IMG/VR virus record: IMGVR_UViG_3300021976_000020
Coordinates: 1 to 52,466 of that record
Source of the DNA: a virus
Lineage: Duplodnaviria > Caudoviricetes
Length of the DNA: 52,466 nt
Reading direction: 5' to 3' (one strand)
This document shows, piece after piece, positions 52 to 52,466 of this stretch. The notes beneath the pieces are model-generated. The model worked only from the letters and a program-made list of their open reading frames with translations, was not told where the DNA came from and did no database searches. The position numbers were made by a program, and so were the translations under genes. Within the stretch, counting starts at the first letter, position 1. Each line of letters begins with the position of its first letter.

Positions 52-242
52 TGCCGGCTCAGACACCGATCAAGTGCTTTAGGTACCTGCCAGGAATATT
101 CTTTGTGCAGGACTTCGCCAATCACGTAATGCCGTACCTCACCGTATTCGACGAGTCGACGATGGAAGTTGTCAAGAAGCTCCTGGCCGACCATCACAAG
201 CGTCCCGTCCTGGCATGGGACGAGGAGTACACGGATGCTTAG
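51..242 (+). CDS. hypothetical protein
   Basis: Tightly coupled ORF between queD end and queE. Confidence 0.6.
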   Translation: MPAQTPIKCFRYLPGIFFVQDFANHVMPYLTVFDESTMEVVKKLLADHHKRPVLAWDEEYTDA

Positions 243-951
243 AGTCCTCGAGGTGTACGCATCCTTTCAAGGAGAAGGCCCGAATACGGGTAAGCCGACC
301 GTCTTCGTTCGGTTTGCTGGCTGCAACCTCAAGTGTCCACTGTGGCCTTGCGACACGCAACACGCCATCGATCCTAAGCAGTACAGGAAGGAGCAGATGT
401 TCGTCACAGCTGATACCCTGTACAGAGAAGCTGCAGCATTCGACATCAGAAACATCTGCGTTACAGGAGGTGAGCCCTTCCTCCAAGATGGACCATCGCT
501 AGCCATGTTCGTAAACCTTCTACGCATGGGTAGTCACACTGTCGAGGTGTTCACGAACGGGACGCTAGAAAGGTCGCAGCAGGCTGGCGAAACCTTCCGC
601 GGCTTCACCACCTTCGTGGTGGACTGGAAGCTGCCCGGCAGCGGAGAGCACAAGGAACCTCTCGACGTGAACTGGAAGAACCTCAACAACCAGAGCGCCA
701 TCAAGTTCACTATTCGAACCGTGGCAGATTTCAAAAGGGCAGTGAGCATCTGGAACGAGAAGATCCATCCATTCTACACTGCTAACGGGATACGCCATGC
801 AAGTGCCCCTGTGGTGTACTGTGGAGTGGTATGGGGAGGTGAGTTAAACACGGAGCAACTCGCCCAGTTGATCCTGAACGCGAAGCTTCCATGGAGACTC
901 AACGTTCAGGTTCACAAGTTCATATGGGACCCCAACGAGCGGGGAGTGTAA
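235..951 (+). CDS. queE: 7-carboxy-7-deazaguanine synthase (radical SAM)
   Basis: EVYASFQGEG, VFVRFAGCNLKCPLWPCDT, CVTGGEP, FTNGT, WRLNVQVHK motifs; ATG at 235 with GAGGAG RBS. Confidence 0.93.
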   Translation: MLRVLEVYASFQGEGPNTGKPTVFVRFAGCNLKCPLWPCDTQHAIDPKQYRKEQMFVTADTLYREAAAFDIRNICVTGGEPFLQDGPSLAMFVNLLRMGSHTVEVFTNGTLERSQQAGETFRGFTTFVVDWKLPGSGEHKEPLDVNWKNLNNQSAIKFTIRTVADFKRAVSIWNEKIHPFYTANGIRHASAPVVYCGVVWGGELNTEQLAQLILNAKLPWRLNVQVHKFIWDPNERGV

Positions 952-1560
952 ATGGTATACGTTCCCAAAGTCGAACCGATCCCCGACCTGTTGCTTGATG
1001 AACACGAAGTGCAGCTACGTGACATCCTGCAAGAGTACGCAGGCCTCGAAGACGACGAGCACGGCAAGGACACTCCCGCAAGGTACCTCAAGGCCCTCGA
1101 TGAGATGACGGCCTGCAAGAATGATTCAGACGCACACATGGAGAGCTGCATCAAGTGGAAGACGTTCGACAGTCCCTCGGACGAAATGGTAACGCAGACG
1201 GGGATCACGTTCACGAGCCTATGCAATCATCACCTAGTTCCGTTTATCGGAGTCGCGCACATCGCGTACGTACCCAACGGCCGTATCGTTGGCTTGAGCA
1301 AGCTCGCGAGGGTTACGCGTCACTTCGCCAAGCAGTTGCAGGTTCAGGAGGAGCTGACAGCGGACATAGCGAACTTCATCCAGGCCTGCTTGAAGCCGAC
1401 GGGTCTAGCAGTAGTGCTGGAAGCGGAACATATGTGCATGACGATACGTGGCGTCCAAGCACCTGGAAGCAAGACGACAACAAGCAAGATGCTGGGAGTT
1501 TTCGCCGACCACACTCGCACCGCAAAAGCCGAGTTCCAGGCTATTCTCGCCAGACTCTGA
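952..1560 (+). CDS. folE: GTP cyclohydrolase I
   Basis: TPARY, SLCNHHLVPFIG, VGLSKLAR, QVQEELT, HMCMTIRGV motifs. Confidence 0.96.
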   Translation: MVYVPKVEPIPDLLLDEHEVQLRDILQEYAGLEDDEHGKDTPARYLKALDEMTACKNDSDAHMESCIKWKTFDSPSDEMVTQTGITFTSLCNHHLVPFIGVAHIAYVPNGRIVGLSKLARVTRHFAKQLQVQEELTADIANFIQACLKPTGLAVVLEAEHMCMTIRGVQAPGSKTTTSKMLGVFADHTRTAKAEFQAILARL

Positions 1561-1661
1561 ACGACTGGATCACTATCTGCATCGGTTTCGGAATGATGAT
1601 GCTGGGCATTCTTATCGGCTACTTCTTACGAATGGTGGTGGAAGCAAGTGGACTTGGGTGA
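1557..1661 (+). CDS. small membrane protein (start uncertain: CTG 1557 or ATG 1593)
   Basis: Hydrophobic stretch WITICIGFGMMMLGILIGYFL fills the folE-MazG gap. Confidence 0.45.
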   Translation: MNDWITICIGFGMMMLGILIGYFLRMVVEASGLG

Positions 1662-1998
1662 CACGATCCAGGAGTGCGTCGAGGATAGTGCTCGATGGTT
1701 CCCAGGCAAACAACAGTTGCCTTTCCTAGTGCTGGCGCTAGCTGGAGAGGTTGGTGAGGTGGCTAATGTCGTCAAGAAGATCGAACGAGGTAGTCACCAG
1801 CTGGATGAGGGACTGACCTTCGACCTGGCCATGGAGATCGTCGACGCTCTGACGTATCTGAGCGTCATCATGGGCCACCCCACCTTCTCCAAGATCGACT
1901 GGGACGAGATGTATCGGATCAAGCGTGCGTACAACGAAAGCCGCTTCGGTCCTCCTTGCGAGGAGTTCAGTGGAGGCATCATCGGGAACAAGATCTGA
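1648..1998 (+). CDS. MazG-like nucleotide pyrophosphohydrolase
   Basis: LAGEVGEVANVVKKIERG...MEIVDALTYL...KRAYNESRF all-alpha NTP-PPase pattern. Confidence 0.85.
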   Translation: MDLGDTIQECVEDSARWFPGKQQLPFLVLALAGEVGEVANVVKKIERGSHQLDEGLTFDLAMEIVDALTYLSVIMGHPTFSKIDWDEMYRIKRAYNESRFGPPCEEFSGGIIGNKI

Positions 1999-2324
1999 TG
2001 GGACAACCTATTGTCCCAGGAAACGTCGACAACCTGATCGAGACGGCTAATACAGCCTTCGAGCAGGACTGCTTCGATCGTCATGCGATGGGCGAGAAGA
2101 AGTACGGAGACGGCACCTTTCTGGATAAGGATACTATCCGGATGGCCATGGATGAAGCTATCGACATAGCCAACTACATGCGCTATACCTACGTTAAGCT
2201 CTTCCTGATGCGCGAAGGCGTCATGAACTGGGAAGGCGACGGCGTAGCCAAACCTCGTGAGGGCATGGAGAACATGGGTAAGAACGCCGTGTTCCTCCCG
2301 ATGCAAAGGAGACCGCGGGAATGA
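1998..2324 (+). CDS. second all-alpha NTP pyrophosphatase-like protein
   Basis: RHAMGEKKYG...AMDEAIDIANY resembles dATP/dGTP diphosphohydrolase-like proteins; ATG overlaps upstream TGA. Confidence 0.55.
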   Translation: MGQPIVPGNVDNLIETANTAFEQDCFDRHAMGEKKYGDGTFLDKDTIRMAMDEAIDIANYMRYTYVKLFLMREGVMNWEGDGVAKPREGMENMGKNAVFLPMQRRPRE

Positions 2325-2779
2325 AGGAAGAGCTCTTCTGGGCTCACGTAGAGAGACGCAGCAACGGCTGTTGGATCTGGATGGGTGCTAAGCGTGCTGG
2401 CTACGGAGGCTTTGGACAAGAACTTGCGCACGTCTGGGCCTATAAACACTTCATCGGACCAATCCCAGAAGGATTTCAAGTCGACCACACGTGTCACAAC
2501 GGCGACCCCCACTGCCCGGGCGGTAAGCTTTGCTATCATCAGCCGTGCGTAAACTTTGAGGAGCATCTGGAGGCAGTAGCGCCTCTAGTGAACCAACTTA
2601 GAGGTCACGGTAATCAATACAAGAGCATCGCCTACTGCAAACATAGACACGAATTCACAGAAGAAAATACATACAGGTTCGGACCCGATAAGAAGTGGCG
2701 AGGATGCAAGACTTGTCGCTACGCGCGTCGACAGGGTAAGGATCCTGCGACCTATGTTAGGAGTACACCATCAAGGTAG
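2321..2779 (+). CDS. free-standing HNH endonuclease
   Basis: CWIWMGA, GYG, AHVWAY..FIGPIPEG.QVDHTC...CVN..HLEAV...N, and C-terminal CKHRHEFTEENTY...CKTC zinc module. Confidence 0.9.
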   Translation: MKEELFWAHVERRSNGCWIWMGAKRAGYGGFGQELAHVWAYKHFIGPIPEGFQVDHTCHNGDPHCPGGKLCYHQPCVNFEEHLEAVAPLVNQLRGHGNQYKSIAYCKHRHEFTEENTYRFGPDKKWRGCKTCRYARRQGKDPATYVRSTPSR

Positions 2780-3528
2780 CACTGATCCCCCCGAAGGGCT
2801 GGGAAGACTGGGCACTGCAAGGTGATCTCCAGCTTGCCCTTGCCCAACTACCACCTGGTGGCCAGCACTCCAAGGTCTACACGGAAGCCTACACTCGTGG
2901 TGACTACGTCATCGTCGACAACGGTGCAAACGAAGGTGATGCGGTTGGCGACTACAAGCTCCTCGCACAAGCACATCTGTGGTGCGCTCAGGAGATCGTA
3001 GTGCCTGATGTGCTTCGTGATACTGCTGCAACGCTCCACCGAGCCAAGAAGTTCTTCATCAACCTGCGCGACTCTACGTACAACAAGCACGGCTTCACCT
3101 TCATGGGTGTCGTGCAGGGTACGTCATGGGAAGAGCTTATGACGTGCATTAAGTCCTACGAAGCAATGGACGAGATTACAGTACTCGGGATCCCTCGTCA
3201 TCTGATTCAGACCATGGAACAGAAGTTCGTACGGCTCATGTTGGCACAGAACATCGAAGCCAACTACGGTAGAAGGTTTCAGATCCATCTACTGGGCACT
3301 GCTCCGACGTTCGTACGTGAGTGCCGGACCGTATACGCAGATGCACCGTTCATCCGATCCATCGACACCTCGCTACCGTTCAATTATACCATCGCCGGAG
3401 AGGTTTTGCAAGTCGGCTCTCCACCCGTCGGCCGACCTCCTAACTACTTCGAACGTATTCAATCGATGGACAGTGTACGGTTGGCGAGGAATGCATCAAC
3501 GTTCCTAAGGTGGGCGCGTGGAGAATAA
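2770..3528 (+). CDS. dpdA: DpdA-like / TGT-fold guanine transglycosylase (apparent ATC start)
   Basis: Frame is open from 2761: IKVALIPP...VIVDNGANEG...EIVVPDVL...MGVVQG...IHLLG...IRSIDTS. These are TGT-like catalytic motifs, in a preQ0 gene context. The ORF track truncates it to 3001. Confidence 0.7.
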   Translation: MKVALIPPKGWEDWALQGDLQLALAQLPPGGQHSKVYTEAYTRGDYVIVDNGANEGDAVGDYKLLAQAHLWCAQEIVVPDVLRDTAATLHRAKKFFINLRDSTYNKHGFTFMGVVQGTSWEELMTCIKSYEAMDEITVLGIPRHLIQTMEQKFVRLMLAQNIEANYGRRFQIHLLGTAPTFVRECRTVYADAPFIRSIDTSLPFNYTIAGEVLQVGSPPVGRPPNYFERIQSMDSVRLARNASTFLRWARGE

Positions 3529-5917
3529 GCATCCACTAGCTGACTGTGCTCACTGCCCTTTGGCAGACGAGCCGTACGTACCTAGTCTGATCCCTCTTGG
3601 TGAGGCTAGGCTCGCAGTCGTGGGTGAAGCGCCAGGATTTCACGAGTCAGTCCGGAAGGAGCCCTTCAAGGGCCCTTCCGGACAACTCCTGGACAAGGTG
3701 CTCAATCATCACGGCTTCAAACGAAGTGAGGTGTTATACACCAATGTTGTTGCGTGCCGCCCTCCTGATAACGCGAATCCTCCTAAGGCGGCGATTACTG
3801 CTTGTCGCCAGCGTCTCCTGGGGGAGCTCGGGGGAAGTGGAGCTGGAGATGTCGTCGCGCTCGGAGGGACAGCAACTAACGCTCTCGTGGACGATCCGCG
3901 GACTATCACTAGCCTTCGAGTCGGCCCACCTAAGCGACCGACCTCAGCACTACGCGGTAGTTCTGTTCAAAGAGTTATCCCGACGTGGCACCCTGCTTAC
4001 TGCCTACGAAATGCAGATGCGTTTCCTACCCTAGTCGACGACATCGAGAAGGTTACTCGTCACGGCTTCTCAACCTGGAAAGAGCCAGACTGGAAGTACT
4101 TCGACGAGGTTCCACTAGCCCTCCAGGCTCTGAACGCTCTGATCGAGTGGCAGGACCAGAAACAACGCTACGAACTGGTAGTGGACATCGAGGTTGGTAT
4201 CGAGAAGGATACCGCCTTCGACCACCCCAACCACTACCAGATGCTCTGTATCGGTCTTGCCTATACTAAAGGCAAGGCGATCGTAATCGGGGAAGAGGCG
4301 GTCAAGGATAAGAGTGTCATTGCACTGTTGGACAAGCTTCTCCGACGCTCGAAGCTAATCGCACAGAACGGCAAGTTCGACCTGGCAGGACTGTATCCAC
4401 TCATCCCGAGGCTGGAGCTATGGTTCGATACGATGTTGGGGCACTATGTGCTGGATGAACGTCCTGGAGGACATGGACTTAAGGTCATGGCCATTGAGCG
4501 GCTTGGAGCACCGGCGTATGACGACGCTATCAAGCAGTTCGTTCCTCGCGGAGGAAACTACGCCAATATTCCACGTGAGATCCTCTACAAGTACAATGCG
4601 TACGACGTTGCGTGCACTTGGGACCTCTTCGAAGAGTTCGTACCCCTACTCGATGCTCCCATTACTGACTGGCCGTACGAAGACCAGCCAGTACGAACGC
4701 TCCGAGACGTTCACGACTTCTTGGTTGAAGCCTCCAACCAGATAATGTACCTGGAGCTTAACGGTATCACGATCGACCGTGAGTACAGCAATCAGCTGCA
4801 GGAGGACTACCTCCAAGAGCTCGCAGCCATCGAACTTGAGATCGACAACATCGTCCTACAGAGCACACAGAAGTTTGACACGCCTATCAGTCAGATCAAT
4901 CCCCGCTCCCCCAAGCAGGTGTCAAACTACCTCGAATCGCAAGGAGTCAGAGTTGCCTCAACCAACAAGGAAACGCTCGCTGGAATCCTTGAGCGAACTC
5001 GAGACGGCGTTCCGGTCCACGAGTTCGTGTCGACGCTGCTGGACCATCGCAGGCGGCAGAAACTATACGGTACGTATATCAAGGGCATTAGGAATCGACT
5101 CTATAGGGGGCGGGTGTACACAACGTACATGCTCCACGGTACGACTTCCGGGCGGCTCGCTTCGCGTAATCCGAACCTGCAAAACATCGTACGTGATAAG
5201 GCAATCCGAAAGCAGTTTGCTGTTTCGAAGCCCGAGAACGTACTGATCCAGGCCGACTACAAACAGGCTGAAGGCCGTGTCATCACCTATCTTGCACAGG
5301 ACGAGTACCTCCGTTCCATCTTCTGTGATCCAACTCGTGACCTCTTTGACGAGCTCAGCAACCAACTCTATGGAGTCGACAACTGGCGCAAGGAAGTCGA
5401 GAGGGTTAGGACGAAGGCTTTCTTCTATGGCCTTAGCTATGGTCGTGAAGCTCTTAGCATCGCACTTGAGTTCAAGATGCCATTGTCAGAAGCCACCAGC
5501 ACAATGCGTACGTTCATGGACCTTATTCCTGCTACAACAAAGTGGCAAAGTCAGGTACGGCGTCGGGTCCTTGACGGGAAAGAGCTGGTTACACCTTTCG
5601 GAAGGCGACGACGCTTCTCTCTGATCACTGATCAGAACAAGAAGGATGTGCTCAATGAAGCATTGTCCTATCTGCCGCAGTCCACTGCTTCCGACATCTG
5701 CCTCAGTGCCCTTATCCGTTTGCGACCCTTGCTGCGTGGTATGGCATTCATCCGACTTACGATTCACGACGCTCTTGTTGTCGAGTGCGCGAAACAGCGG
5801 CAAGACGAAGTATCTGAACTACTCGCTAAAGTCATGGTCGAAGTCGGGCGGGAGTTCACCGAGTACGTGCCATTTGACGTTGACCTAAGTTCTGGACCTA
5901 GTTGGGGGTCATTGTGA
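3518..5917 (+). CDS. polA: family A DNA polymerase with N-terminal family-4 uracil-DNA-glycosylase-like domain (SPO1-type) and 3'-5' exonuclease
   Basis: UDG4: CAHCPL, VGEAPG, PFKGPSG, TNVVACRPP, HPAY. Exonuclease: DIE, QNGKFDL, YNAYD. Polymerase: TSGRLAS.NPNLQN, ADYKQAEGR, KAFFYGLSYG, IHDAL. Confidence 0.95.
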   Translation: MENKHPLADCAHCPLADEPYVPSLIPLGEARLAVVGEAPGFHESVRKEPFKGPSGQLLDKVLNHHGFKRSEVLYTNVVACRPPDNANPPKAAITACRQRLLGELGGSGAGDVVALGGTATNALVDDPRTITSLRVGPPKRPTSALRGSSVQRVIPTWHPAYCLRNADAFPTLVDDIEKVTRHGFSTWKEPDWKYFDEVPLALQALNALIEWQDQKQRYELVVDIEVGIEKDTAFDHPNHYQMLCIGLAYTKGKAIVIGEEAVKDKSVIALLDKLLRRSKLIAQNGKFDLAGLYPLIPRLELWFDTMLGHYVLDERPGGHGLKVMAIERLGAPAYDDAIKQFVPRGGNYANIPREILYKYNAYDVACTWDLFEEFVPLLDAPITDWPYEDQPVRTLRDVHDFLVEASNQIMYLELNGITIDREYSNQLQEDYLQELAAIELEIDNIVLQSTQKFDTPISQINPRSPKQVSNYLESQGVRVASTNKETLAGILERTRDGVPVHEFVSTLLDHRRRQKLYGTYIKGIRNRLYRGRVYTTYMLHGTTSGRLASRNPNLQNIVRDKAIRKQFAVSKPENVLIQADYKQAEGRVITYLAQDEYLRSIFCDPTRDLFDELSNQLYGVDNWRKEVERVRTKAFFYGLSYGREALSIALEFKMPLSEATSTMRTFMDLIPATTKWQSQVRRRVLDGKELVTPFGRRRRFSLITDQNKKDVLNEALSYLPQSTASDICLSALIRLRPLLRGMAFIRLTIHDALVVECAKQRQDEVSELLAKVMVEVGREFTEYVPFDVDLSSGPSWGSL

Positions 5918-6120: not shown

Positions 6121-6344
6121 GAGTTCGACTCACGGCCGATGACCTCATCCAGATCGCATCAGCAGTATCCAAGATCGAGCAGCTGAAGGTACACATCAGT
6201 CAGTTCGAGAGCAACCAACACGTCGTGGACCTCGAATGGACTAACGACCAGCGAGATGGTACGAGCGTCTCCGTTGTCGGTATCACAGCAAAGCGAGACT
6301 ATCACAAGCAGGCCATGCGAGGCGAACCAGTTCCTGGGAGGTAG
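6117..6344 (+). CDS. hypothetical protein
   Basis: ATGA-coupled ORF. Confidence 0.65.
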   Translation: MRVRLTADDLIQIASAVSKIEQLKVHISQFESNQHVVDLEWTNDQRDGTSVSVVGITAKRDYHKQAMRGEPVPGR

Positions 6345-6345
6345 A

Positions 6346-6669
6346 GTGCCAAGAGGTCAGATCGCAAATATCGGCGACACGATGGTCAACGCTCTTGGCT
6401 ATCACAATACTCGTGTCGCTACTGGCTGGAGGCTCACGCATCACCTCGTTGCCGAGCAGATACTCCAGCGACCGCTTACAGCTAACGATACTGTAAGGTT
6501 CAAGGATGGTAACCGGACCAACTTGGAGCCAGACAACATCGAAGTCCTGAAGAAGCATACAGGATCGCTGAGGAGGAGGAAGGCGATCCTGGAGGCTAAG
6601 ATCGAGGATCTGCAGGCGCAGCTAGACGAAGTGAACAAGGAGATCGCAGAGCGTGGACAACGTAGCTAA
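6346..6669 (+). CDS. HNH-fold protein with C-terminal coiled coil (catalytic His apparently lost)
   Basis: HHLVAEQILQRPL..DTVRFKDGNRTNLEPDNIEV; GGAGG RBS before GTG 6346. Confidence 0.7.
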   Translation: MPRGQIANIGDTMVNALGYHNTRVATGWRLTHHLVAEQILQRPLTANDTVRFKDGNRTNLEPDNIEVLKKHTGSLRRRKAILEAKIEDLQAQLDEVNKEIAERGQRS

Positions 6670-6851
6670 GGGCTCCGACAAGGACTACTGCTCCTCGTCA
6701 GCCCCCGACGAGCCGGGACATGTAATGGCTACGCACATGCGAGGAGGCGCACTAGCTTCTGTACGGCGGTGTATGCTATGTGGGGTGGATCGACTTCGAC
6801 GATCTCGATAACCAGATCAAGTCTTTGATCGAGAAAGCTCTCAAGCGTTAG
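6653..6851 (+). pseudogene. small Cys-containing gene with apparent 1-nt frameshift in GGGG (6782-6785)
   Basis: MDNVAKG...RRCMLCG continues as WIDFDDLDNQIKSLIEKALKR* in the +1 frame. Confidence 0.4.
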
Positions 6852-6875
6852 GGCTGGGAGTAGTAGGGAAAGTAG

Positions 6876-6970
6876 AATAGACTGAGTCTAACCTAGTTCT
6901 AACTCGTGACTTTGTGAGGTCTTTACCCTAGGGTAGCTAGAGGATCTTGCGAGTCTAACTACAGTCTAAC
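6876..6970 (+). repeat. dispersed ~95 bp element, copy A
   Basis: Aligns with 28217-28313 (TAGTTCTAACTCG(A)TGACTTTGTG...GAGGATCTTGCG..TCTAACTA.AGTCTA.C) and with the inverted copy at 40155-40251. Confidence 0.85.
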
Positions 6971-6989
6971 CGCTCGTACACTTGGCAGA

Positions 6990-7000
6990 ACTCCACACGG
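6990..7000 (+). promoter_or_regulatory. ACTCCACACGG motif copy
   Basis: Exact 11-mer, one of at least 11 copies. Confidence 0.8.
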
Positions 7001-7016
7001 CGAAGGGACGGTTTAC

Positions 7017-45532: not shown

Positions 45533-46819
45533 ATGCTACGGAGTGTAAACGATTACATCAATGCGGGTCTGACGCACTCACTGCACACCTCTGAGCGTCG
45601 GTCCTTTCGTGGTTGCCGCAGGCGTTGGGACTGGATCTCTCGCCAGATGTACTACCCGAGAGTGACCGCACGTCCTCTTGAATTCGGCGTTGCGTTTCAC
45701 GCAGCGATGGAAGCCTATTACGGCTTCTGGTTGGGTCTATGGGAGAACCCAGACCCGGAAGCAGCGTTACAGTTGGCGCTGATAAAGTTCCGGGAGATCA
45801 CCGATTCCCAAAGGGCCGCATACATTCGCATGAACGACGAGATCAGTCCTGAGATGTCTGCGGACTACAAGGACAGGGTCAAGCTCGGCGAGAGTATGCT
45901 CAAATACTACTTCCGAACCATAGCACCAAAAGCGGACATGGATCTCAAGCCTTTGAAGGTCGAGATCAAGTTCGAAGTACCCATTACCGGTCCGAACGGC
46001 GAAACTCTGTGGTGCAAGTGTGACCACTGTTGGGCTCGCTACACTAACTGGTGGTTGAGCAAGCGTCCAGAGCCTCTCGGTGGAGTCGATCCAGAACAAG
46101 AGAGAGCTCACTGGAAGGGTTTGCCTGTTACCTACGGTGGACGTATCGACATCATCTTCCAAGATCGGTACGGACGCATTTGGGTCGGTGACTGGAAGAC
46201 AGCAGCACGTCTGTCAGGTGTTGATACGAACACAACGGACGACTATATGTGGAACGATGACCAGATCACCTCGTACTGTTGGGCACTAGCATCTATTGGA
46301 CTGGACGTCGCAGGCTTCATCTATGCCGAGATTAAGAAGGCAGTTCCCGAAGAGCCTGAGTTGCTTTCCCGTCCGTACAAGGGTAGAATGTTCTCCACCA
46401 ACAAGCAGCAAACTACTACCCTGGCGCTATTCCGAAATACGGTGTCGGAGAACGATGTTGAAGCGTATGAGTCAGGTGCCTACGATGACTTCCTCGAGTA
46501 CCTGAAGCACAACGCTCCGCAGTTCCATGCACGTCACCAGATTCATCGGAACGACGAGGAACTCCGACAAGCTGGCGAGATGATCTATCTCGAGGCGACG
46601 GAGATGACCAACCCGAGCTTGCCGATCTATCCTAATCCAGGACGCTTCCACTGCAAAGGTTTCACTGACGCTAGTGGATGTGCCTTCTGGGAGCCTTGCC
46701 TCGGGAAGAACCGTGGCGAGGATTATGAGTACACCTTGGAAACAATGTTCGAAAAACGTACACGTCACTACTGGGAAGAGGCTCAACCAAGTACTGACAA
46801 GAGGATGGAGGCTCTGTGA
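45533..46819 (+). CDS. PD-(D/E)XK exonuclease (Cas4/RecB-like)
   Basis: SE..SFRGCRRRW, FGVAFH.AME, GRIDII...DWKT, Q...Y, C-terminal Cys cluster. Confidence 0.88.
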   Translation: MLRSVNDYINAGLTHSLHTSERRSFRGCRRRWDWISRQMYYPRVTARPLEFGVAFHAAMEAYYGFWLGLWENPDPEAALQLALIKFREITDSQRAAYIRMNDEISPEMSADYKDRVKLGESMLKYYFRTIAPKADMDLKPLKVEIKFEVPITGPNGETLWCKCDHCWARYTNWWLSKRPEPLGGVDPEQERAHWKGLPVTYGGRIDIIFQDRYGRIWVGDWKTAARLSGVDTNTTDDYMWNDDQITSYCWALASIGLDVAGFIYAEIKKAVPEEPELLSRPYKGRMFSTNKQQTTTLALFRNTVSENDVEAYESGAYDDFLEYLKHNAPQFHARHQIHRNDEELRQAGEMIYLEATEMTNPSLPIYPNPGRFHCKGFTDASGCAFWEPCLGKNRGEDYEYTLETMFEKRTRHYWEEAQPSTDKRMEAL

Positions 46820-46980
46820 ACCACCTCGACTTAACATCACTGCTTAACCCGTCGGAACACTCCGGTTCAGCAAGAAAGGTTCAGGTACTTACGGAGGGCG
46901 GAGAGGTCTGGGATATCATGGACGTAGAGTTCGATCCCGAGGCTGCCACGCTCTACCTTAAGTGCGAACCGGAGGAATAA
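46816..46980 (+). CDS. hypothetical protein
   Basis: GTGA/TAATG coupled. Confidence 0.55.
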   Translation: MNHLDLTSLLNPSEHSGSARKVQVLTEGGEVWDIMDVEFDPEAATLYLKCEPEE

Positions 46981-47132
46981 TGCGCACCAAGTTGTTGTAC
47001 CGACTATTTCCCTACCTCAAGAGGCGAGCAGTCATCCGGCAGCTCGAGCAGTACCGTGCGTACGACATGAAAATCGATCCTAACGTGAAGGCCGCGCTGC
47101 GTGCACGGCTTCTGCGGGAGATGAACAAGTGA
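46980..47132 (+). CDS. hypothetical protein
   Basis: Coupled both sides; GGAGG RBS. Confidence 0.55.
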   Translation: MRTKLLYRLFPYLKRRAVIRQLEQYRAYDMKIDPNVKAALRARLLREMNK

Positions 47133-47893
47133 CTGAGACGATCACGCCGACACAGTTCGCTGGACTGCCGATTCAACGGCCACGTGATCGAGTACGCAAC
47201 GTTAACATGCTGATCTATGGTGAAGCGGGTGTTGGCAAGACTTGGCTCGCAGGGTCAGCACACGAAGTGCCTGGAATGCGGAACGTCCTCTACGTGGATG
47301 CCGAATCGGGTGCAGACACTTTGAAGCAGGCCTGGCCTGACGTCGAGACGCTGACCGCAACATGTTGGGCGGACTACGATCGGATCTACGCAGCATGCTT
47401 GGCTGGTGCTCACGACTACCGAACGATTGTTCTAGACTCCATCAGCGAGATCCTGGAACACTGTAAGGAAGCCGTGATGGAAGAGCTCAAGATGGATCCC
47501 GAGAACGAGAAGCGGGATCCGGACATTCCTAGCATCCGCGAGTGGGGCAAGATTCTTGTCCGTATGCTGCGGTTCGTTCGTAGATTCCGGGACTTGCCGA
47601 TGAACGTCATCTTCATTGCCCATGCTGACCTCACAAAGGACAAGATGGGCAAGTCGAAGTGGGAGCCGCTCGTCAACGGCAAGTTCCAGAAGAAGCTACC
47701 TCAGATCCCTGATGTAGTCCTCTTTATGTACAGACAGGAGATTGAAGGCGTCCAAACTCGACTTCTGCTTACACAGCAGACTGACAAGGCAGTAGCAAAA
47801 GTGCGCGGCGTAGTCATGCCGATGGTAATCGGTGCAGAAAACGAATCGGTAACAATGGAAACGATCATGAACTACTACAAGGAGAACGCGTAA
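47129..47893 (+). CDS. Sak4-like AAA ATPase (AAA_24)
   Basis: LIYGEAGVGKT, D.ESG, TIVLDSISE, NVIFIAH. Confidence 0.88.
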   Translation: MTETITPTQFAGLPIQRPRDRVRNVNMLIYGEAGVGKTWLAGSAHEVPGMRNVLYVDAESGADTLKQAWPDVETLTATCWADYDRIYAACLAGAHDYRTIVLDSISEILEHCKEAVMEELKMDPENEKRDPDIPSIREWGKILVRMLRFVRRFRDLPMNVIFIAHADLTKDKMGKSKWEPLVNGKFQKKLPQIPDVVLFMYRQEIEGVQTRLLLTQQTDKAVAKVRGVVMPMVIGAENESVTMETIMNYYKENA

Positions 47894-48399
47894 TGGGTAT
47901 CACCGTTAACATGTCCGACAAGGAAGCCAAGGCTGGTGTAATCGAGCCAGTCCCGGCTGGGTGGTACAAGGTCGTCATCTCTGACGGCGAGCTCAAGGAG
48001 TCGAACTCGCAGAAGAACTACGGCAAGCCGTACTACAGCCTCGAGTTCACCATCGCGGAGCCGGAGGCGTACGAGGGTCGGAAGATCTTCACCAACGCCA
48101 TGCTCTTCGACAAGGCTCTGTACACGATCTCGGGTCTGATGAAGGCTCTCGGCTACAACGTCACGGCTGGCGAGCTCGAGGTTCCCGACCTGGACGAGCT
48201 CATGGGCCGTGAGGTCATGCTGAAGGCCAAGATCACGCCGGAGCGCACAGTGACTGACGCGAGCACCGGCGAGAAGAAGACCTACGAGCCGCGGAACGAC
48301 GTGAGTGGGTTCAAGGCCCTCGGCGAGGTTACTGCTTCAATCCCTCAGCAGCGGACTGGCGGAAGCGTCACTGCCGCTGGCAAGAGCATCCTCCCGTAG
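47893..48399 (+). CDS. single-stranded DNA-binding protein (DUF669-like)
   Basis: PVPAGWY, LEFTI...YEGRKIF, RNDV; follows Sak4. Confidence 0.8.
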   Translation: MGITVNMSDKEAKAGVIEPVPAGWYKVVISDGELKESNSQKNYGKPYYSLEFTIAEPEAYEGRKIFTNAMLFDKALYTISGLMKALGYNVTAGELEVPDLDELMGREVMLKAKITPERTVTDASTGEKKTYEPRNDVSGFKALGEVTASIPQQRTGGSVTAAGKSILP

Positions 48400-48415
48400 T
48401 ACCCCTTTCCAATTG

Positions 48416-48456
48416 AGTTGGGGCCACTCATCGTCGCGCCTGGGTGGCCCCAATTC
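48416..48456 (+). terminator. hairpin after SSB
   Basis: GAGTTGGGGCCACTCA / TGGGTGGCCCCAATTC. Confidence 0.65.
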
Positions 48457-48482
48457 CCTTCCATTCCCACGCGGAGGGGAAC

Positions 48483-50687
48483 GTGAGCGATGATATACAC
48501 AAGACTCTTGATACGTTCTTCCGTGCGGCCTTCGGTCCTAGGGCCACTGGCTTCGTTTGCCTCGCGTTCCTAGCTACGAACTCAGGCGAACGAAAGCTCA
48601 CGGAACACTTCTTTGAGTACCCGACACAACTGAACAACATGATTGCCACAGTACAACGTGGCATGCTAGAAAGTAACGCATACTACTGCCCTATGCTCTT
48701 CTCGGAGCGGAAGCGCAGAAAGGATACGGTTAAGGAATGTCCAGCAGCGTGGGCGGATCTGGACACTTGCGACCCGACCAAGATGCTAGTATCACCGACG
48801 CTAGCAGTGGAATCAAGCCCTGGGCGGTACCAAGCCCTATGGCGCTTCACAGAGCCGCAGCCGCCGCACGTCGCAGAAGACTTGTCGAAGAGAATCGCCT
48901 ACTATCACGCCTCCGATGGCGCAGATCGTAGTGGCTGGGATCTGACACAGCTCCTGCGACTGCCCGGTACGCCTAACTTCAAGTACAGCGGCCATCCTAG
49001 AGTGCAAACGATCGCAACTGATCGAGCACTGTACACACTGAAAGATTTCGGCAAGTATCCTGAGGTACAACACTCCGAGTTCCTAAAGGCGCCGATGCCG
49101 ACGGCAGAGGAGCTGCCAGAAGAAACCGCAGAGCAGTTGTTCCTTAAGTATCGCCATCAAGTACTACCAGCAGCACTAGCCACCTTCATGCACGAGCCAG
49201 AAGGATCATGGAGCGAGGCTCTGTGGAAGATGGAGATGATGTGCTTCGAAGGGGGCATGTCAAAGGAAGAGGTATTCGTCGTAGCTAGTGCGGCGAAGTG
49301 TAACAAGTACCAGCGCGATCATAAGGACCCAACGTACCTGTGGATAGAAGTATGTCGAGCGTTCGTTAAGTACCAGGAGAACGTGAACGCAGTCTTCTTC
49401 CAAGGCGCGGAGATCCAACCGCTACTGTCAATCGAAGAGTCCAAGATCGCTGATGCGCAGGAAGGCTTCGCAGAGAGGTACGTCGAATGGGCTTCGTCGC
49501 TGGGGGATGCCGCTGTTCAGTATCACCAGGCTGGTGCCTTCACGATTCTATCCGCTTTGCTAAGCGGTCGGCTAGTACTGCCGACCAGCTTCGGAACAGT
49601 GATACCGAACCTTTGGTTTATGATTCTCGGCGACACAACGTTGACGAGGAAGAGTACGGCGATGGACATCGGGATCGACCTCCTACTGGAAGTCGATCCT
49701 GACGTTATCTTAGCAACTGATGGATCGATCGAAGGCCTCCTGCAACAGCTAGAGGCAAGGCCGAAGAGACCGTCAGTGTTCTGGAGGGATGAGTTTAGTG
49801 GACTCCTCGAGCAGATTACCAAGAAAGACTACATGGCAGGCATGGCCGAGGTGCTTACCAAACTGTACGATGGAAAGATGCAGAAGCGAGTCCTGCGAAA
49901 GGAGACAGTTACTGTTCGCGATCCTATTCTGCTTGTTCTGGCGGGAGGGATTCGCAATCGCGTGCAGTCACTACTTACGCACGAACATGTCAGTTCAGGT
50001 TTCATACCACGATTCATCTTCGTTACAGCGGAATCTGACACAACTCGAGTCAAGCCACTTGGACCACCTGCGCTACGCGATATGGGCAACAAGGCGGCGC
50101 TCGTAGAAGAGATGGAGAAGATCCGCGACCACTACGGTCAACAGCGGACGATCCACATCAAGGCACTAGACCAGCACAGACCGATCGAAGGTGGCTTCGA
50201 AGCGCATCTGACACCAGATGCTTGGGAGCGATACAACAGACTAGAGGGCGAGCTGCTGGAGTGTGGACTCAAATCGGAGAAGCCCGACTTGATGACACCA
50301 CTATTCGATCGGTTAGCCAAGTCAGGCCTTAAGGCAGCGGTCCTCTTAGCAGGCGCCAGACAGTTCGACAAGCACGTGTCAGTAGAAGTAACCGACATCC
50401 TACATGCGATCCGATATGTCGAGCAGTGGCGTACGTATGCCATCGAAGTCGTCAACGGGATCGGCAAGACAGTGTTCGAGCGAGACATTGAGAAGATCCT
50501 AGGCGCGATTGTAAAGCGTCCAGGTGTCAGTCGAGCACAACTGATGCAGAGCTACCACCTCACAGCGAGGATCGCAGACCAAGTCTTCGACACGCTAATC
50601 CAACGAGGCCAGATAGCAATGCAGCGGACAGATGGCACAAGTCGGCAAGTGTACTATCCGACAGTATCACGAGGAGGAGTTAAGTGA
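48483..50687 (+). CDS. RepB-type DNA primase fused to DUF3987-like helicase
   Basis: AWADLD, ESSPGRYQALW, LLRLPGTPN.KY; TRKST, DEF, GFIPRF; GGAGG RBS before GTG 48483. Confidence 0.85.
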   Translation: MSDDIHKTLDTFFRAAFGPRATGFVCLAFLATNSGERKLTEHFFEYPTQLNNMIATVQRGMLESNAYYCPMLFSERKRRKDTVKECPAAWADLDTCDPTKMLVSPTLAVESSPGRYQALWRFTEPQPPHVAEDLSKRIAYYHASDGADRSGWDLTQLLRLPGTPNFKYSGHPRVQTIATDRALYTLKDFGKYPEVQHSEFLKAPMPTAEELPEETAEQLFLKYRHQVLPAALATFMHEPEGSWSEALWKMEMMCFEGGMSKEEVFVVASAAKCNKYQRDHKDPTYLWIEVCRAFVKYQENVNAVFFQGAEIQPLLSIEESKIADAQEGFAERYVEWASSLGDAAVQYHQAGAFTILSALLSGRLVLPTSFGTVIPNLWFMILGDTTLTRKSTAMDIGIDLLLEVDPDVILATDGSIEGLLQQLEARPKRPSVFWRDEFSGLLEQITKKDYMAGMAEVLTKLYDGKMQKRVLRKETVTVRDPILLVLAGGIRNRVQSLLTHEHVSSGFIPRFIFVTAESDTTRVKPLGPPALRDMGNKAALVEEMEKIRDHYGQQRTIHIKALDQHRPIEGGFEAHLTPDAWERYNRLEGELLECGLKSEKPDLMTPLFDRLAKSGLKAAVLLAGARQFDKHVSVEVTDILHAIRYVEQWRTYAIEVVNGIGKTVFERDIEKILGAIVKRPGVSRAQLMQSYHLTARIADQVFDTLIQRGQIAMQRTDGTSRQVYYPTVSRGGVK

Positions 50688-51541
50688 CTCAGCCGATCGA
50701 GTTCCCCCCGGTCACGCACCAGCCTGACAGCGTCGCCATTGTTTCTGGCGGTCTCGACAGTACGACGTTGGTCTACGACATGCTGGACAAGGGCTACACG
50801 CCGCATCTGCTCAGCTTCAACTACGGACAGCGGCACGCCAAGGAACTGACCTTCGCCAAGATGACCGCACAGATCCTAGGCCTCAAGCACGACATCGTCG
50901 ACCTGACAGGACTGACACACCTGATCAGCAACTCGGCTCTGACCTCCGATCACAAGCATGCCGAAGGCAACGACATCATCGAAGTTCCTGAGGGGCACTA
51001 CGCTGAGGACAGCATGAAGGCTACGGTTGTCCCAAACCGTAACATGATTATGCTGAGCATCGCTACAGGCTTGGCTGTCAACAATCACTACCGCACGGTC
51101 GGTATCGGTGTTCACGCGGGTGACCATTTCGTATACCCTGACTGCCGACCAGAGTTCATCTTCTCCCTGGGTCAGGCAATACTGCGGGGTAACGAAGGTT
51201 TCCACAATTTCACCACCAACGATGAAGTCGTCGAATTTGGTGGTATGCAGTTCAAGGGAACGGCTCTTCCAATCTACGCACCGTTCCTACACTACTCGAA
51301 GGCAACCATTGCCTATCGTGCCATCGAGCTCAGTGTTCCGTTTCATCTGACCTGGAGCTGCTATAAGGGTGGCGAGAAGCACTGCGGTAAGTGTGGGACC
51401 TGCGTGGAGCGCCTAGAGGCTATCAATCATGCTCAGTGGCAGATTTCAAAGGACGTTCCAGAGTGGTGCGACACTCCGTATAAGATCGAGGACCAGACAG
51501 AGTACGAGAACACAGATTTCTGGAAGACCGCGAAGAAATGA
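50684..51541 (+). CDS. queC: 7-cyano-7-deazaguanine synthase
   Basis: SGGLDST, YGQRH.KE, VPNRN, YPDCRPEF, TWSCYKGGEKHCGKCGTCVER. Confidence 0.96.
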   Translation: MTQPIEFPPVTHQPDSVAIVSGGLDSTTLVYDMLDKGYTPHLLSFNYGQRHAKELTFAKMTAQILGLKHDIVDLTGLTHLISNSALTSDHKHAEGNDIIEVPEGHYAEDSMKATVVPNRNMIMLSIATGLAVNNHYRTVGIGVHAGDHFVYPDCRPEFIFSLGQAILRGNEGFHNFTTNDEVVEFGGMQFKGTALPIYAPFLHYSKATIAYRAIELSVPFHLTWSCYKGGEKHCGKCGTCVERLEAINHAQWQISKDVPEWCDTPYKIEDQTEYENTDFWKTAKK

Positions 51542-51767: not shown

Positions 51768-51995
51768 ATGAAGCGTGCGATAGTGTCCCTGAGCGAAGAG
51801 CTCATTTGGCAGATACTGGATCTGCCTGAGAACGTTCACCTAATGGGGGTGCGTGACAACTTTCTACAGCTAGGCATCGACGTCATGATAGAGGGTGAAG
51901 GTCTGCAAGGCATACCGGATCACATGGTGGGAACGGAGCCGTGGCGGCTAGAAGCGCGTATGGTGGATGGCCGAATCAAGCTGGAGCTGGCATGA
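51768..51995 (+). CDS. hypothetical protein
   Basis: Coupled to queD by ATGA. Confidence 0.65.
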   Translation: MKRAIVSLSEELIWQILDLPENVHLMGVRDNFLQLGIDVMIEGEGLQGIPDHMVGTEPWRLEARMVDGRIKLELA

Positions 51996-52466
51996 GCTTT
52001 ATCGAACTGAAGCACAACATGGAAGTGGCACATCGACTGTACAATCTGCCTGGTAAGTGCCAGAAGATTCACGGCCACTCGATGGTTGTGACGCTTCGAG
52101 TGCACGGAGAGATCAAGCCTGGCGGAATCTTGCACGGCTTCTTGGGTCAGCAGTTCGAGTTCGGTGCGATGAAGAAGTCGTTCAGGAGCTATCTGGATGA
52201 CCACTACGATCACCAGCTGCTGCTGAACAAGGTAGATCCATGGGCTGGACCGATCTTCCAGCTCAAATCGGATTACAGCCAGTCGGTGGATGGTGACCCT
52301 GCAGCGTACCTGCTGGACTCGACGCAGAAGTTCCTGCCTGGTCTAGTTCCGTGCGAAGAAGATCCGACCACGGAGAACATTGCCAAGTGGATCGCCGAGA
52401 AGATGTGCGAGATGTTCGACGCACACGTGGAGGTCTTCGTTCAAGAGACAGCTACGAATGGTGTTG
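51992..52466 (+). CDS. queD: 6-carboxy-5,6,7,8-tetrahydropterin synthase (runs off window end)
   Basis: EVAHRL...GKCQKIHGHS, YDHQLLLN, PTTENIA, VQET. Confidence 0.93.
   Translation, partial: MSFIELKHNMEVAHRLYNLPGKCQKIHGHSMVVTLRVHGEIKPGGILHGFLGQQFEFGAMKKSFRSYLDDHYDHQLLLNKVDPWAGPIFQLKSDYSQSVDGDPAAYLLDSTQKFLPGLVPCEEDPTTENIAKWIAEKMCEMFDAHVEVFVQETATNGV

Follow-up and report, generated by a model that had tools for sequence, protein, structure and literature searches.

FolE, QueD, QueE and QueC convert GTP to the free base preQ0. According to published work, DpdA1, DpdA2 and the bacterial DpdA insert bases into DNA and phages carrying DpdA3 replace guanine completely (PMC10516641), while modification by the DpdA1 of phage 9g is partial, reaching up to ∼27% of dG. 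The founding DpdA3 members, from phages phiST, immuto and CP220, needed HHpred for their recognition and went undetected by Pfam TGT; in the same text, DpdA3 alone gave no modification in Escherichia coli, and ADG nucleoside was found within the cytoplasm when cells were infected with CP220 (PMC10516641). A modified-dGTP route was proposed in 2019 for Campylobacter phages (PMC6884629) and set aside in 2023 upon the discovery of DpdA3, all such modifications being then described as post-replicative (PMC10516641), and a paper from December 2025 still gives 7-deazaguanine as an example of modification at the nucleic-acid level. Here we analyze a dpdA-like gene and its surroundings in the 52,466-bp genome record of an uncultivated Caudoviricetes soil phage (IMG/VR IMGVR_UViG_3300021976_000020, called the window over its full length), where the gene lies directly ahead of a family A DNA polymerase. 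The locus is very probably a DpdA3-type 7-deazaguanine module, and its gene context leads us to a proposal, which we regard as evenly balanced, that base exchange occurs on free nucleotides before replication, in contradiction to the published post-replicative view.

The dpdA product required a fold search for its recognition, since a profile of the DpdA3-like family searched against PDB sequences found no TGT and returned chance-level matches to Dlg guanylate-kinase domains (best E = 0.0013). No Pfam family matched the protein, two function-unknown PHROGs matched it weakly, and Pfam TGT had no match anywhere in the record. The AlphaFold2 (AF2) model is confident over the full length (pLDDT 96.4, pTM 0.93), and Foldseek gave 145 PDB matches to it at E ≤ 0.001, those listed being all TGT or QTRT1 with probability 1.00, TM-scores by query of 0.52–0.63 and target lengths of 340–392 aa. 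By this model, the product is a minimal enzyme with the TIM-barrel fold of TGT. At E ≤ 0.001, searching with the protein gave 61 relatives, mostly of 245–270 aa, which cover ∼98% of the 255-residue translation of the frame, and an alignment of 33 sequences has invariant columns that include D53, N54, E58, E78, D83, Q119, H176, G179, R199, D202, P206 and R225; all 14 family-invariant columns are retained in the window protein. The invariant D53 (in DNG) and D202 (in D-T-S-L-P) may, judging by TGT motifs, correspond to the TGT general acid/base and nucleophile. The same alignment has no invariant cysteine, which argues against a TGT-type zinc site and is a further feature that we count toward exchange on free nucleotides. 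The initial annotation had described the gene as TGT-like, with DNGANEG where DSG-type motifs are usual. The open frame, the TGT fold and the string itself (VDNGANEGD; clade consensus DNGAAEG) bear this out, but DNG is not unusual for the DpdA3 branch: the motif is LDNS in the DpdA3 references, LDSGAF in DpdA1 and DNG in the window's branch. Isoelectric point and charge were also considered as hints of DNA binding and were uninformative, 9g DpdA1 being as acidic as DpdA3.

Placement of the gene among the DpdA types, which had been proposed as a check, came from profile–profile comparison (hhalign) with DpdA1, DpdA3 and DpdA4. The family profile of the window matched BSP7_057 at 99.8%, the DpdA3 of phiST at 99.2% (E = 1.4e-19) and those of immuto and CP220 at 98.8% and 98.6%, against 5.6% for the DpdA4 of HVTV-1 (HVTV1_69) and 0.3% for the DpdA1 of 9g. 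A loose tblastn search also picks the DpdA3-defining phages, namely Flavobacterium immuto (where the match is annotated as a DNA guanine transglycosylase), Campylobacter CP220-like and Cellulophaga phiST-like phages, together with the Bacillus BSP7/BSTP phages and the Weizmannia phage Youna2. A quick maximum-likelihood tree search was made with 30 clade and 35 canonical rows, a random choice among 130 non-identical sequences that are 225–300 aa long. In it, a split with 100% support in the Shimodaira–Hasegawa-like approximate likelihood ratio test separates the window's clade, together with BSP7 and phiST (on a long branch), from immuto, CP220 and 35 metagenomic relatives. These sequence comparisons identify the gene as a new, deep-branching member of DpdA3. 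The closest cultured phages are BSP7, BSTP and Youna2, whose describing paper, in the case of Youna2, mentions neither queuosine nor restriction nor deazaguanine, and we know of no cultured member of the clade itself. Two relatives, P0053 and P0026, match DUF6610 with their C-terminal halves below threshold (E = 1.9e-05 and 3.1e-4); DUF6610 is the Pfam family matched by the DpdA4 of HVTV-1 (PMC10516641), and these matches look like a faint trace of a common TGT-fold ancestry of DpdA3 and DpdA4.

With the founding DpdA3 systems the window shares the fold, profile homology over nearly the full length, the D-N-[GS] and HLLG...D-T-S motifs and a neighborhood made up of que genes, an NTP hydrolase gene and a polymerase gene. 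It differs from them in that identity is just ∼24–25%, that MazGb, a small protein encoded upstream of dpdA, takes the place of a P-loop kinase and that its PolA bears a UDG domain. The window also has the full preQ0 pathway with QueC, which phiST lacks in the published description (PMC10516641). The 9g DpdA1 and those of other Queuovirinae belong to the same superfamily, and in 9g FolE, DpdA and the polymerase likewise occupy a similar replication module, but the 9g enzyme has DSG for DNG, shows no detectable profile similarity and is 317 aa long against 252 aa, a difference that we count toward exchange at the nucleotide level.

The evidence that carries this proposal is the linkage of dpdA to nucleotide-metabolism genes. 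One group of profiles was applied to the open reading frames (ORFs) of three sets of IMG/VR loci, and genes within 3 kb of dpdA were counted wherever a locus extends 1500 nt or more to either side of it. In the window's clade, 57 of 60 loci have a MazG-like gene, none has a small P-loop kinase and five have DUF3310, while MazGb is present in 51 of the 60 and either MazGb or DUF3310 in 55. Among 57 loci of canonical DpdA3 relatives, eight have a MazG-like gene and 43 a small P-loop kinase, which begins at most 60 nt from the dpdA stop in 17 of them; ten kinases sampled from the 56 hits all belong to Pfam AAA_28, and several of them also match dNK or thymidylate kinase weakly. The DpdA1 (9g-like) control, with 80 loci, gave no MazG-like gene, no kinase and one DUF3310, and as FolE was found in 78 of these 80 loci, the search worked there. 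Two metagenomic DpdA1 matches (L178:5001-5927 and L182:5001-5855) contain an in-frame stop codon.

In cultured phages, dpdA has similar neighbors. In phiST, MazG, an AAA_18 protein and DpdA3 stand in a row ahead of the polymerase; CP220 has an HD+AAA_33 fusion, DpdA3 and an AAA_28 "thymidylate kinase"; and immuto_2-6A has a PRA-PH-type NTP pyrophosphatase, DpdA3, a thymidylate kinase, QueF and PolA. BSP7 and Youna2 carry a small Walker-A kinase upstream, overlapping the start of the DpdA3-like gene, with PolA after it. The block of 9g, FolE-DpdA-clamp-polymerase, includes no hydrolase or kinase. The window's phage belongs to a large clade of soil phages, with genomes of about 50 kb, in which the block MazGa-MazGb-DpdA3-UDG/PolA is fixed, and PolA is present in 77 of the 80 loci in this set. 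In one related locus, L076, a PRA-PH/MazG-type enzyme replaces MazGa.

Building on gene identities, a fold, a branch membership and a conserved gene linkage that are observed, we infer from gene context the substrate, direction and timing of the exchange, the identity of the base (with dPreQ0 as default) and all enzyme specificities. DpdA3 would swap guanine for preQ0 on a free deoxyguanine nucleotide and not on finished DNA. MazGa would turn dGTP into dGMP, removing the competitor and supplying the substrate, base exchange by DpdA3 would yield dPreQ0-MP, a kinase and the host NDP kinase would restore the triphosphate, and the adjacent PolA would incorporate the deaza-dNTP, leading to near-complete replacement of G. 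Candidates for the kinase in the window's clade would be MazGb, the DUF3310 protein that replaces MazGb in some relatives, or a host enzyme. We favor exchange on free nucleotides because the hydrolase/kinase linkage is specific to a branch whose known members replace all G. At the level of the nucleotide pool, both activities are needed for dGMP supply, dGTP removal and re-phosphorylation of the product, whereas a transglycosylase that works on DNA purely after replication could do without dNTP hydrolase and nucleotide kinase alike. A nucleotide-level route also fits the negative outcome in E. coli when DpdA3 was tested by itself, as well as the ADG nucleoside of CP220-infected cells. A more far-reaching version, which we hold tentatively and consider slightly short of an even prospect, is that DpdA3 enzymes do not act on DNA and are the first TGT-fold enzymes to exchange bases on free deoxynucleosides or deoxynucleotides (for example dGMP + preQ0 -> dPreQ0-MP + guanine), at the center of a novel pathway that replaces a purine before replication. 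Its order would be dGTP hydrolase, transglycosylase, kinase and polymerase, with MazGb as a novel nucleotide kinase or specificity factor in the part played by AAA_28 or DUF3310 proteins in other loci.

Two pyrophosphatases had been attributed to the locus, of which one survives. MazGa gave no Pfam match at E ≤ 0.01 as a single protein, but its family profile (30 sequences) matches DCTPP1/RS21-C6 and MazG-like chains in the PDB at E = 1e-11 to 7e-4, and E34, E37, E63 and D66, which make up the EXXE...EXXD metal site, are invariant in the 30 sequences. By profile and motif it is a MazG-like dNTP pyrophosphohydrolase, and a candidate for the canonical-dNTP hydrolase of a pool-replacement system. 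MazGb, by comparison, matches no pyrophosphatase family, motif or fold: it has no EXXE, only E53..D56 is nearly invariant, and none of 29 members matches a pyrophosphatase Pfam family. The AF2 model is a two-helix hairpin with a pLDDT of 70, Pfam gave no match, the best PDB match has E = 0.1, Foldseek returned no match, and a search of the ESM Atlas found viral hypothetical clusters only. The family is widespread, with 537 representative clusters at E ≤ 0.001, and the 150 listed are all stand-alone proteins of 77–180 aa. Comparison by hhalign with phiST gp040 and T7 gp1.7 was negative. A complex prediction for the DpdA3-like protein, MazGa and MazGb, with MazGb as the partner, scored 0.00, which speaks neither for nor against binding.

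DUF3310 may connect DpdA3 with nucleotide phosphorylation. DUF3310 is found in T7 gp1.7 (Pfam E = 4.5e-23), a kinase that converts dGMP and dTMP to dGDP and dTDP (PMC11897194). In the window's clade, DUF3310 is present in four of the nine loci without MazGb and in one of the 51 with it (Fisher p = 0.0012, a descriptive value only, the loci being related), and it lies directly beside dpdA in six of 80 related loci (Table 1), with a further DUF3310 gene ∼2.7 kb upstream of dpdA in L051; in the canonical DpdA3 set, none was found in 80 loci. The protein P0068 joins DpdA3 (residues 3–256, hhalign 99.9%) to a C-terminal DUF3310 (420–477, hhalign 96%, E = 4.7e-09). The likeness to T7 gp1.7 has its bounds, as the short DUF3310 proteins lack the N-terminal 120 residues of gp1.7 and the window has no DUF3310 gene, MazGb in that place being not detectably related to gp1.7. 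Other fusions unite DpdA3 with QueF (P0064, P0065 and P0066) or with a 330-residue N-terminal region that has no Pfam match (P0067), and the only fusion found for the window's own family is to QueF.

Several observations weigh against exchange on free nucleotides. MazG-like genes are common in phages without base modification, and a P-loop neighbor could be an ATPase helper, as DpdB is for the bacterial DpdA. The nearest solved relatives of MazGa are dCTP pyrophosphatases, which favor dCTP and its derivatives, and not dGTP-specific enzymes. MazGb is kin neither to MazGa (hhalign 3%) nor to DUF3310 (hhalign 0.03% to the DUF3310 alignment, and negative with a single DUF3310 protein), and of three Walker-A matches in the window none is a nucleotide kinase. 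As for the comparative counts, kinship among the loci of a set means that the numbers do not stand for independent events, the DpdA1 control represents a single lineage with 57–100% identity to 9g, and one canonical DpdA3 subclade has only QueC, QueD and QueE beside dpdA. P0068 is a single metagenomic protein whose DUF3310 part scores 23.6 bits in Pfam against a cut-off of 24. To our knowledge there is no biochemistry on any DpdA3, and all characterized members of the TGT/DpdA superfamily that we know of act on a polynucleotide. We found no literature that proposes or tests a nucleotide-level DpdA3, in a search outside which most subscription journals fell.

The main competing explanation, which we consider possible though doubtful, is that DpdA3 swaps G for preQ0 in DNA after replication, while MazGa and the kinases only manage nucleotide pools or help as ATPases and adjoin dpdA because the whole region is a replication and nucleotide module. 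This agrees with the TGT fold and with relatives (DpdA1, DpdA2 and the bacterial DpdA) that act on DNA, Cui et al. (2023) argue for it across all DpdA subfamilies (PMC10516641), and the 9g-like replication module means that dpdA may simply occupy the same slot; additionally, 14 of the 57 canonical DpdA3 loci have no kinase within 3 kb. Post-replicative exchange would, however, leave both the branch-specific linkage (57/60 and 43/57 against 0/80) and the DpdA3-DUF3310 fusion unaccounted for. It would also have to account for the conversion of all G in both strands in the course of a single infection cycle, and it is at odds with a DpdA3 that left E. coli DNA unmodified on its own.

Exchange on free nucleotides would have counterparts elsewhere. 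In the T4 hydroxymethyl-dC pathway, the dCTPase gp56, gp42 and the dNMP kinase gp1 are involved. The Z-genome pathway (PurZ, MazZ, DatZ and DpoZ), as set out in PMC12783734, and the T4 pathway would follow the same logic as the proposed window route, in which the canonical dNTP is taken to the monophosphate, the base is changed there, and the product, once phosphorylated again, is incorporated by a phage polymerase. The resemblance to MazZ/DatZ/DpoZ drawn in the initial annotation is thus best kept as an analogy of logic: no enzymes are homologous between the window and the Z or T4 pathways except for the MazG-like fold, and the MazGa profile reaches MazZ (7ody) at E = 0.018 only, against 1e-11 for DCTPP1. 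A base change by TGT-fold transglycosylation is not known from any nucleotide-level pathway, and unlike Z-type pool replacement the window has no recognizable kinase, although other DpdA3 lineages do. The idea of nucleotide-pool replacement itself, raised by the same annotation from layout, has gained the linkage counts and the P0068 fusion, and it stays a proposal.

The start of dpdA needs separate consideration, and its non-canonical codon had previously been missed. The frame opens after a TAG at 2758–2760, and no ATG, GTG or TTG occurs in it before 3001. In the alignment, 29 full-length homologues begin with M (V once) exactly where the window has the ATC of position 2770, with N-termini of the form M[KR]xALIPP, and three others are N-terminally shortened. 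Since homologues begin exactly here and no usual start codon lies upstream of 3001, the start is ATC, and as contigs from two runs are identical to the window DNA, it is not an assembly slip. The initial annotation had described translational chaining of these genes. The overlaps are real: the MazGa stop and the MazGb ATG share 1 nt (TGATG, 1996–2000), the MazGb stop and the ATG of the next gene overlap in ATGA (2321–2324), and the dpdA stop (3526–3528) lies 11 nt into polA. The gene between the small genes and dpdA, however, is an HNH homing-type endonuclease that went unmentioned, and its stop (2777–2779) lies 10 nt into dpdA. In the majority of relatives it is the end of MazGb that overlaps the dpdA start (for example in L006, with MazGb at 6663–7004 and dpdA from 7001), an overlap now occupied by the HNH ATG in the window, and a homologue of the HNH gene occurs in one of 80 related loci, at a different site. 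Sequencing-run evidence consisted of Logan contigs, and none of these skips the HNH gene to give an uninterrupted junction. The start of the HNH gene, ATGAAGG (2321–2327), and that of dpdA, ATCAAGG (2770–2776), form, at either end of the inserted gene, an imperfect direct repeat of 7 nt with 6/7 identical, which, short as it is, may be the target-site echo of a homing event. We infer that a homing endonuclease landed on the MazGb/dpdA junction and took over the start signal of dpdA. A possible second HNH gene at 6256–6669 matches HNH_3 at E = 5.6e-4 and 19.9 bits, below the cut-off of 24.8.

Such an insertion might have silenced or crippled dpdA, so that the locus of this phage no longer modifies DNA. 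The missing start codons, the absence of HNH from the MazGb/dpdA junction of related loci and the genuine ATC would all agree with this, but we consider it improbable. The 252-codon frame is intact with every family-invariant column kept, and the AF2 model is confident along its whole length. Moreover, the ATC is preceded by a GGAG at a distance of 6 nt, and the HNH stop follows 7 nt after the first base of the codon, positions that make near-cognate initiation or termination-reinitiation plausible. As the HNH stop overlaps the first dpdA codons, coupled re-initiation at the ATC is plausible, and the ATC is probably read through this coupling. A role on tRNA, by which the phage would boost the host's supply of queuosine precursor and the TGT-like protein would act on tRNA, was raised by Hutinet et al. 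(2019) for que-bearing phages without a recognized DpdA, but is hardly credible here, as the enzyme groups with the DpdA3 of phages with fully modified DNA, lacks the extra domains of tRNA-TGT (252 aa against targets of 340–392 aa) and is encoded between a dNTP pyrophosphatase and a DNA polymerase.

PolA had been recognized as the polymerase of the locus, and as a family A enzyme it stands. Its adjacency to dpdA does not discriminate between readings, given that 9g also has FolE-DpdA-clamp-polymerase, and its N-terminal domain of the UDG superfamily had gone unmentioned. The Pfam matches of the protein are PF00476 (E = 5e-61), PF03167 (E = 7.7e-24) and PF01612 (E = 1.1e-09). The UDG domain makes up the N-terminal ∼190 residues (3518–4090) and has GEAPG and HPAY motifs and an N-terminal CxxC. 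A UDG-like N-terminus is present in the PolA ORF in 76 of 80 related loci, with GE[AGS]PG in 68 of those 76, whereas neither the canonical DpdA3 loci nor the first 17 DpdA1 loci have this fusion. Reportedly, 7-deazaguanines do not inhibit polymerases, and polymerase synthesis with 7-substituted 7-deaza-dGTPs has been published (cited in PMC10516641), so acceptance by the polymerase would be no obstacle. A replication module at 45533–50687 encodes a PD-(D/E)XK nuclease, an AAA_24 Sak4-like ATPase, a DUF669 protein and a RepB-type primase with DUF3987. The order in this module is the same as in phage 9g (Queuovirinae), where the slot after FolE holds DpdA1, and in the window MazGa-MazGb-DpdA3.

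The presence of QueE, FolE, QueC and QueD, reported from the outset, is confirmed by family matches in Pfam and PHROG (Table 1), and the four genes are assigned on that basis. Their products account for preQ0 as the expected base, given that QueC is present and QueF is not: a Pfam search of the whole record for QueF matched only the T-fold of FolE, at 18.5 bits and below the cut-off. Nor is this QueC of the Gat-QueC kind, as it carries no glutamine amidotransferase domain and aligns to the QueC part alone of the Gat-QueC PHROG profile (positions 255–463 of 476). The earlier choice of dPreQ0 as default base thus stands. The QueD match spans positions 3–115 of 121 in the PF01242 profile. When the record ends are joined, the QueD frame gains 10 codons to a stop at ∼30–32, and its C-terminus then matches relatives in length. 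For this reason, the que genes are probably one contiguous block, and the record, whose completeness is estimated at 91% and which is classed as linear, may be a complete, circularly permuted genome. In related contigs, the order primase-QueC-QueD-QueE-FolE can be read directly, and within 3 kb of dpdA, FolE is found in 71, QueD in 63 and QueE in 56 of 80 related loci.

The record has a G+C content of ∼55%, and no near-identical DNA was found in the phage collection searched. The studied stretch is letter-for-letter identical in Logan contigs from two runs of one soil-metagenome sample. Two runs of another soil sample and study (X3 and X4) hold exact pieces of 107–224 nt at 1792–2015, 2341–2491, 3150–3300 and 3594–3700, which include part of the HNH gene and cover 8/30 bins in X3 and 5/30 in X4; the same phage, HNH gene included, seems to be present in this second sample at low depth.

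Table 1. Positions of the genes of the window and of DUF3310 genes adjoining dpdA in related loci.
Feature	Position	Strand	Length	Basis
QueE (7-carboxy-7-deazaguanine synthase, radical SAM)	235..951	+		phrog_2076 E=3.7e-35; Fer4_12, Radical_SAM
FolE (GTP cyclohydrolase I)	952..1560	+		PF01227 E=1.5e-57
MazGa, MazG/DCTPP1-like all-alpha dNTP pyrophosphohydrolase (putative), GTG start	1648..1998	+	116 aa	family profile; phrog_229 E=3.2e-05
MazGb, conserved small helical-hairpin protein	1998..2324	+	108 aa	in 51/60 related loci; AF2 two long helices
HNH homing-type endonuclease	2321..2779	+	152 aa	HNH_3 E=1.3e-07; phrog_826 E=1.2e-36
DpdA3-type guanine/7-deazaguanine transglycosylase, ATC start	2770..3528	+	252 aa	homologue starts, AF2, Foldseek, hhalign
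Family A DNA polymerase, N-terminal UDG-superfamily domain + 3'-5' exonuclease	3518..5917	+	799 aa	Pfam
QueC (7-cyano-7-deazaguanine synthase)	50684..51541	+	285 aa	PF06508 E=8.2e-55; phrog_1550 E=7.9e-62
QueD (6-carboxytetrahydropterin synthase), frame leaves record end	51941..52466	+		PF01242 E=7.7e-19; phrog_2389
DUF3310 directly upstream of dpdA	L055:6763-7005, L081:6087-6314, L083:5751-6011			
DUF3310 between dpdA and polA	L012:7753-8130, L043:2306-2638, L049:7744-8157			

The way in which certain phages come to have 100% of their G replaced by a 7-deazaguanine is unsettled, and the contrast in gene context reopens the question, which can now be addressed directly with a few purified proteins and the cultured phages BSP7 and BSTP (both on Bacillus subtilis), Youna2 and phiST. 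Should the nucleotide-level route prove wrong, the gene described here would be an ordinary new member of DpdA3, with a homing-endonuclease insertion and an ATC start. If it is true, the TGT fold would have a new enzymatic activity, the replacement of every G in some phages would be explained, and a simple enzymatic route to 7-substituted 7-deaza-dGTPs and G-free DNA would follow.

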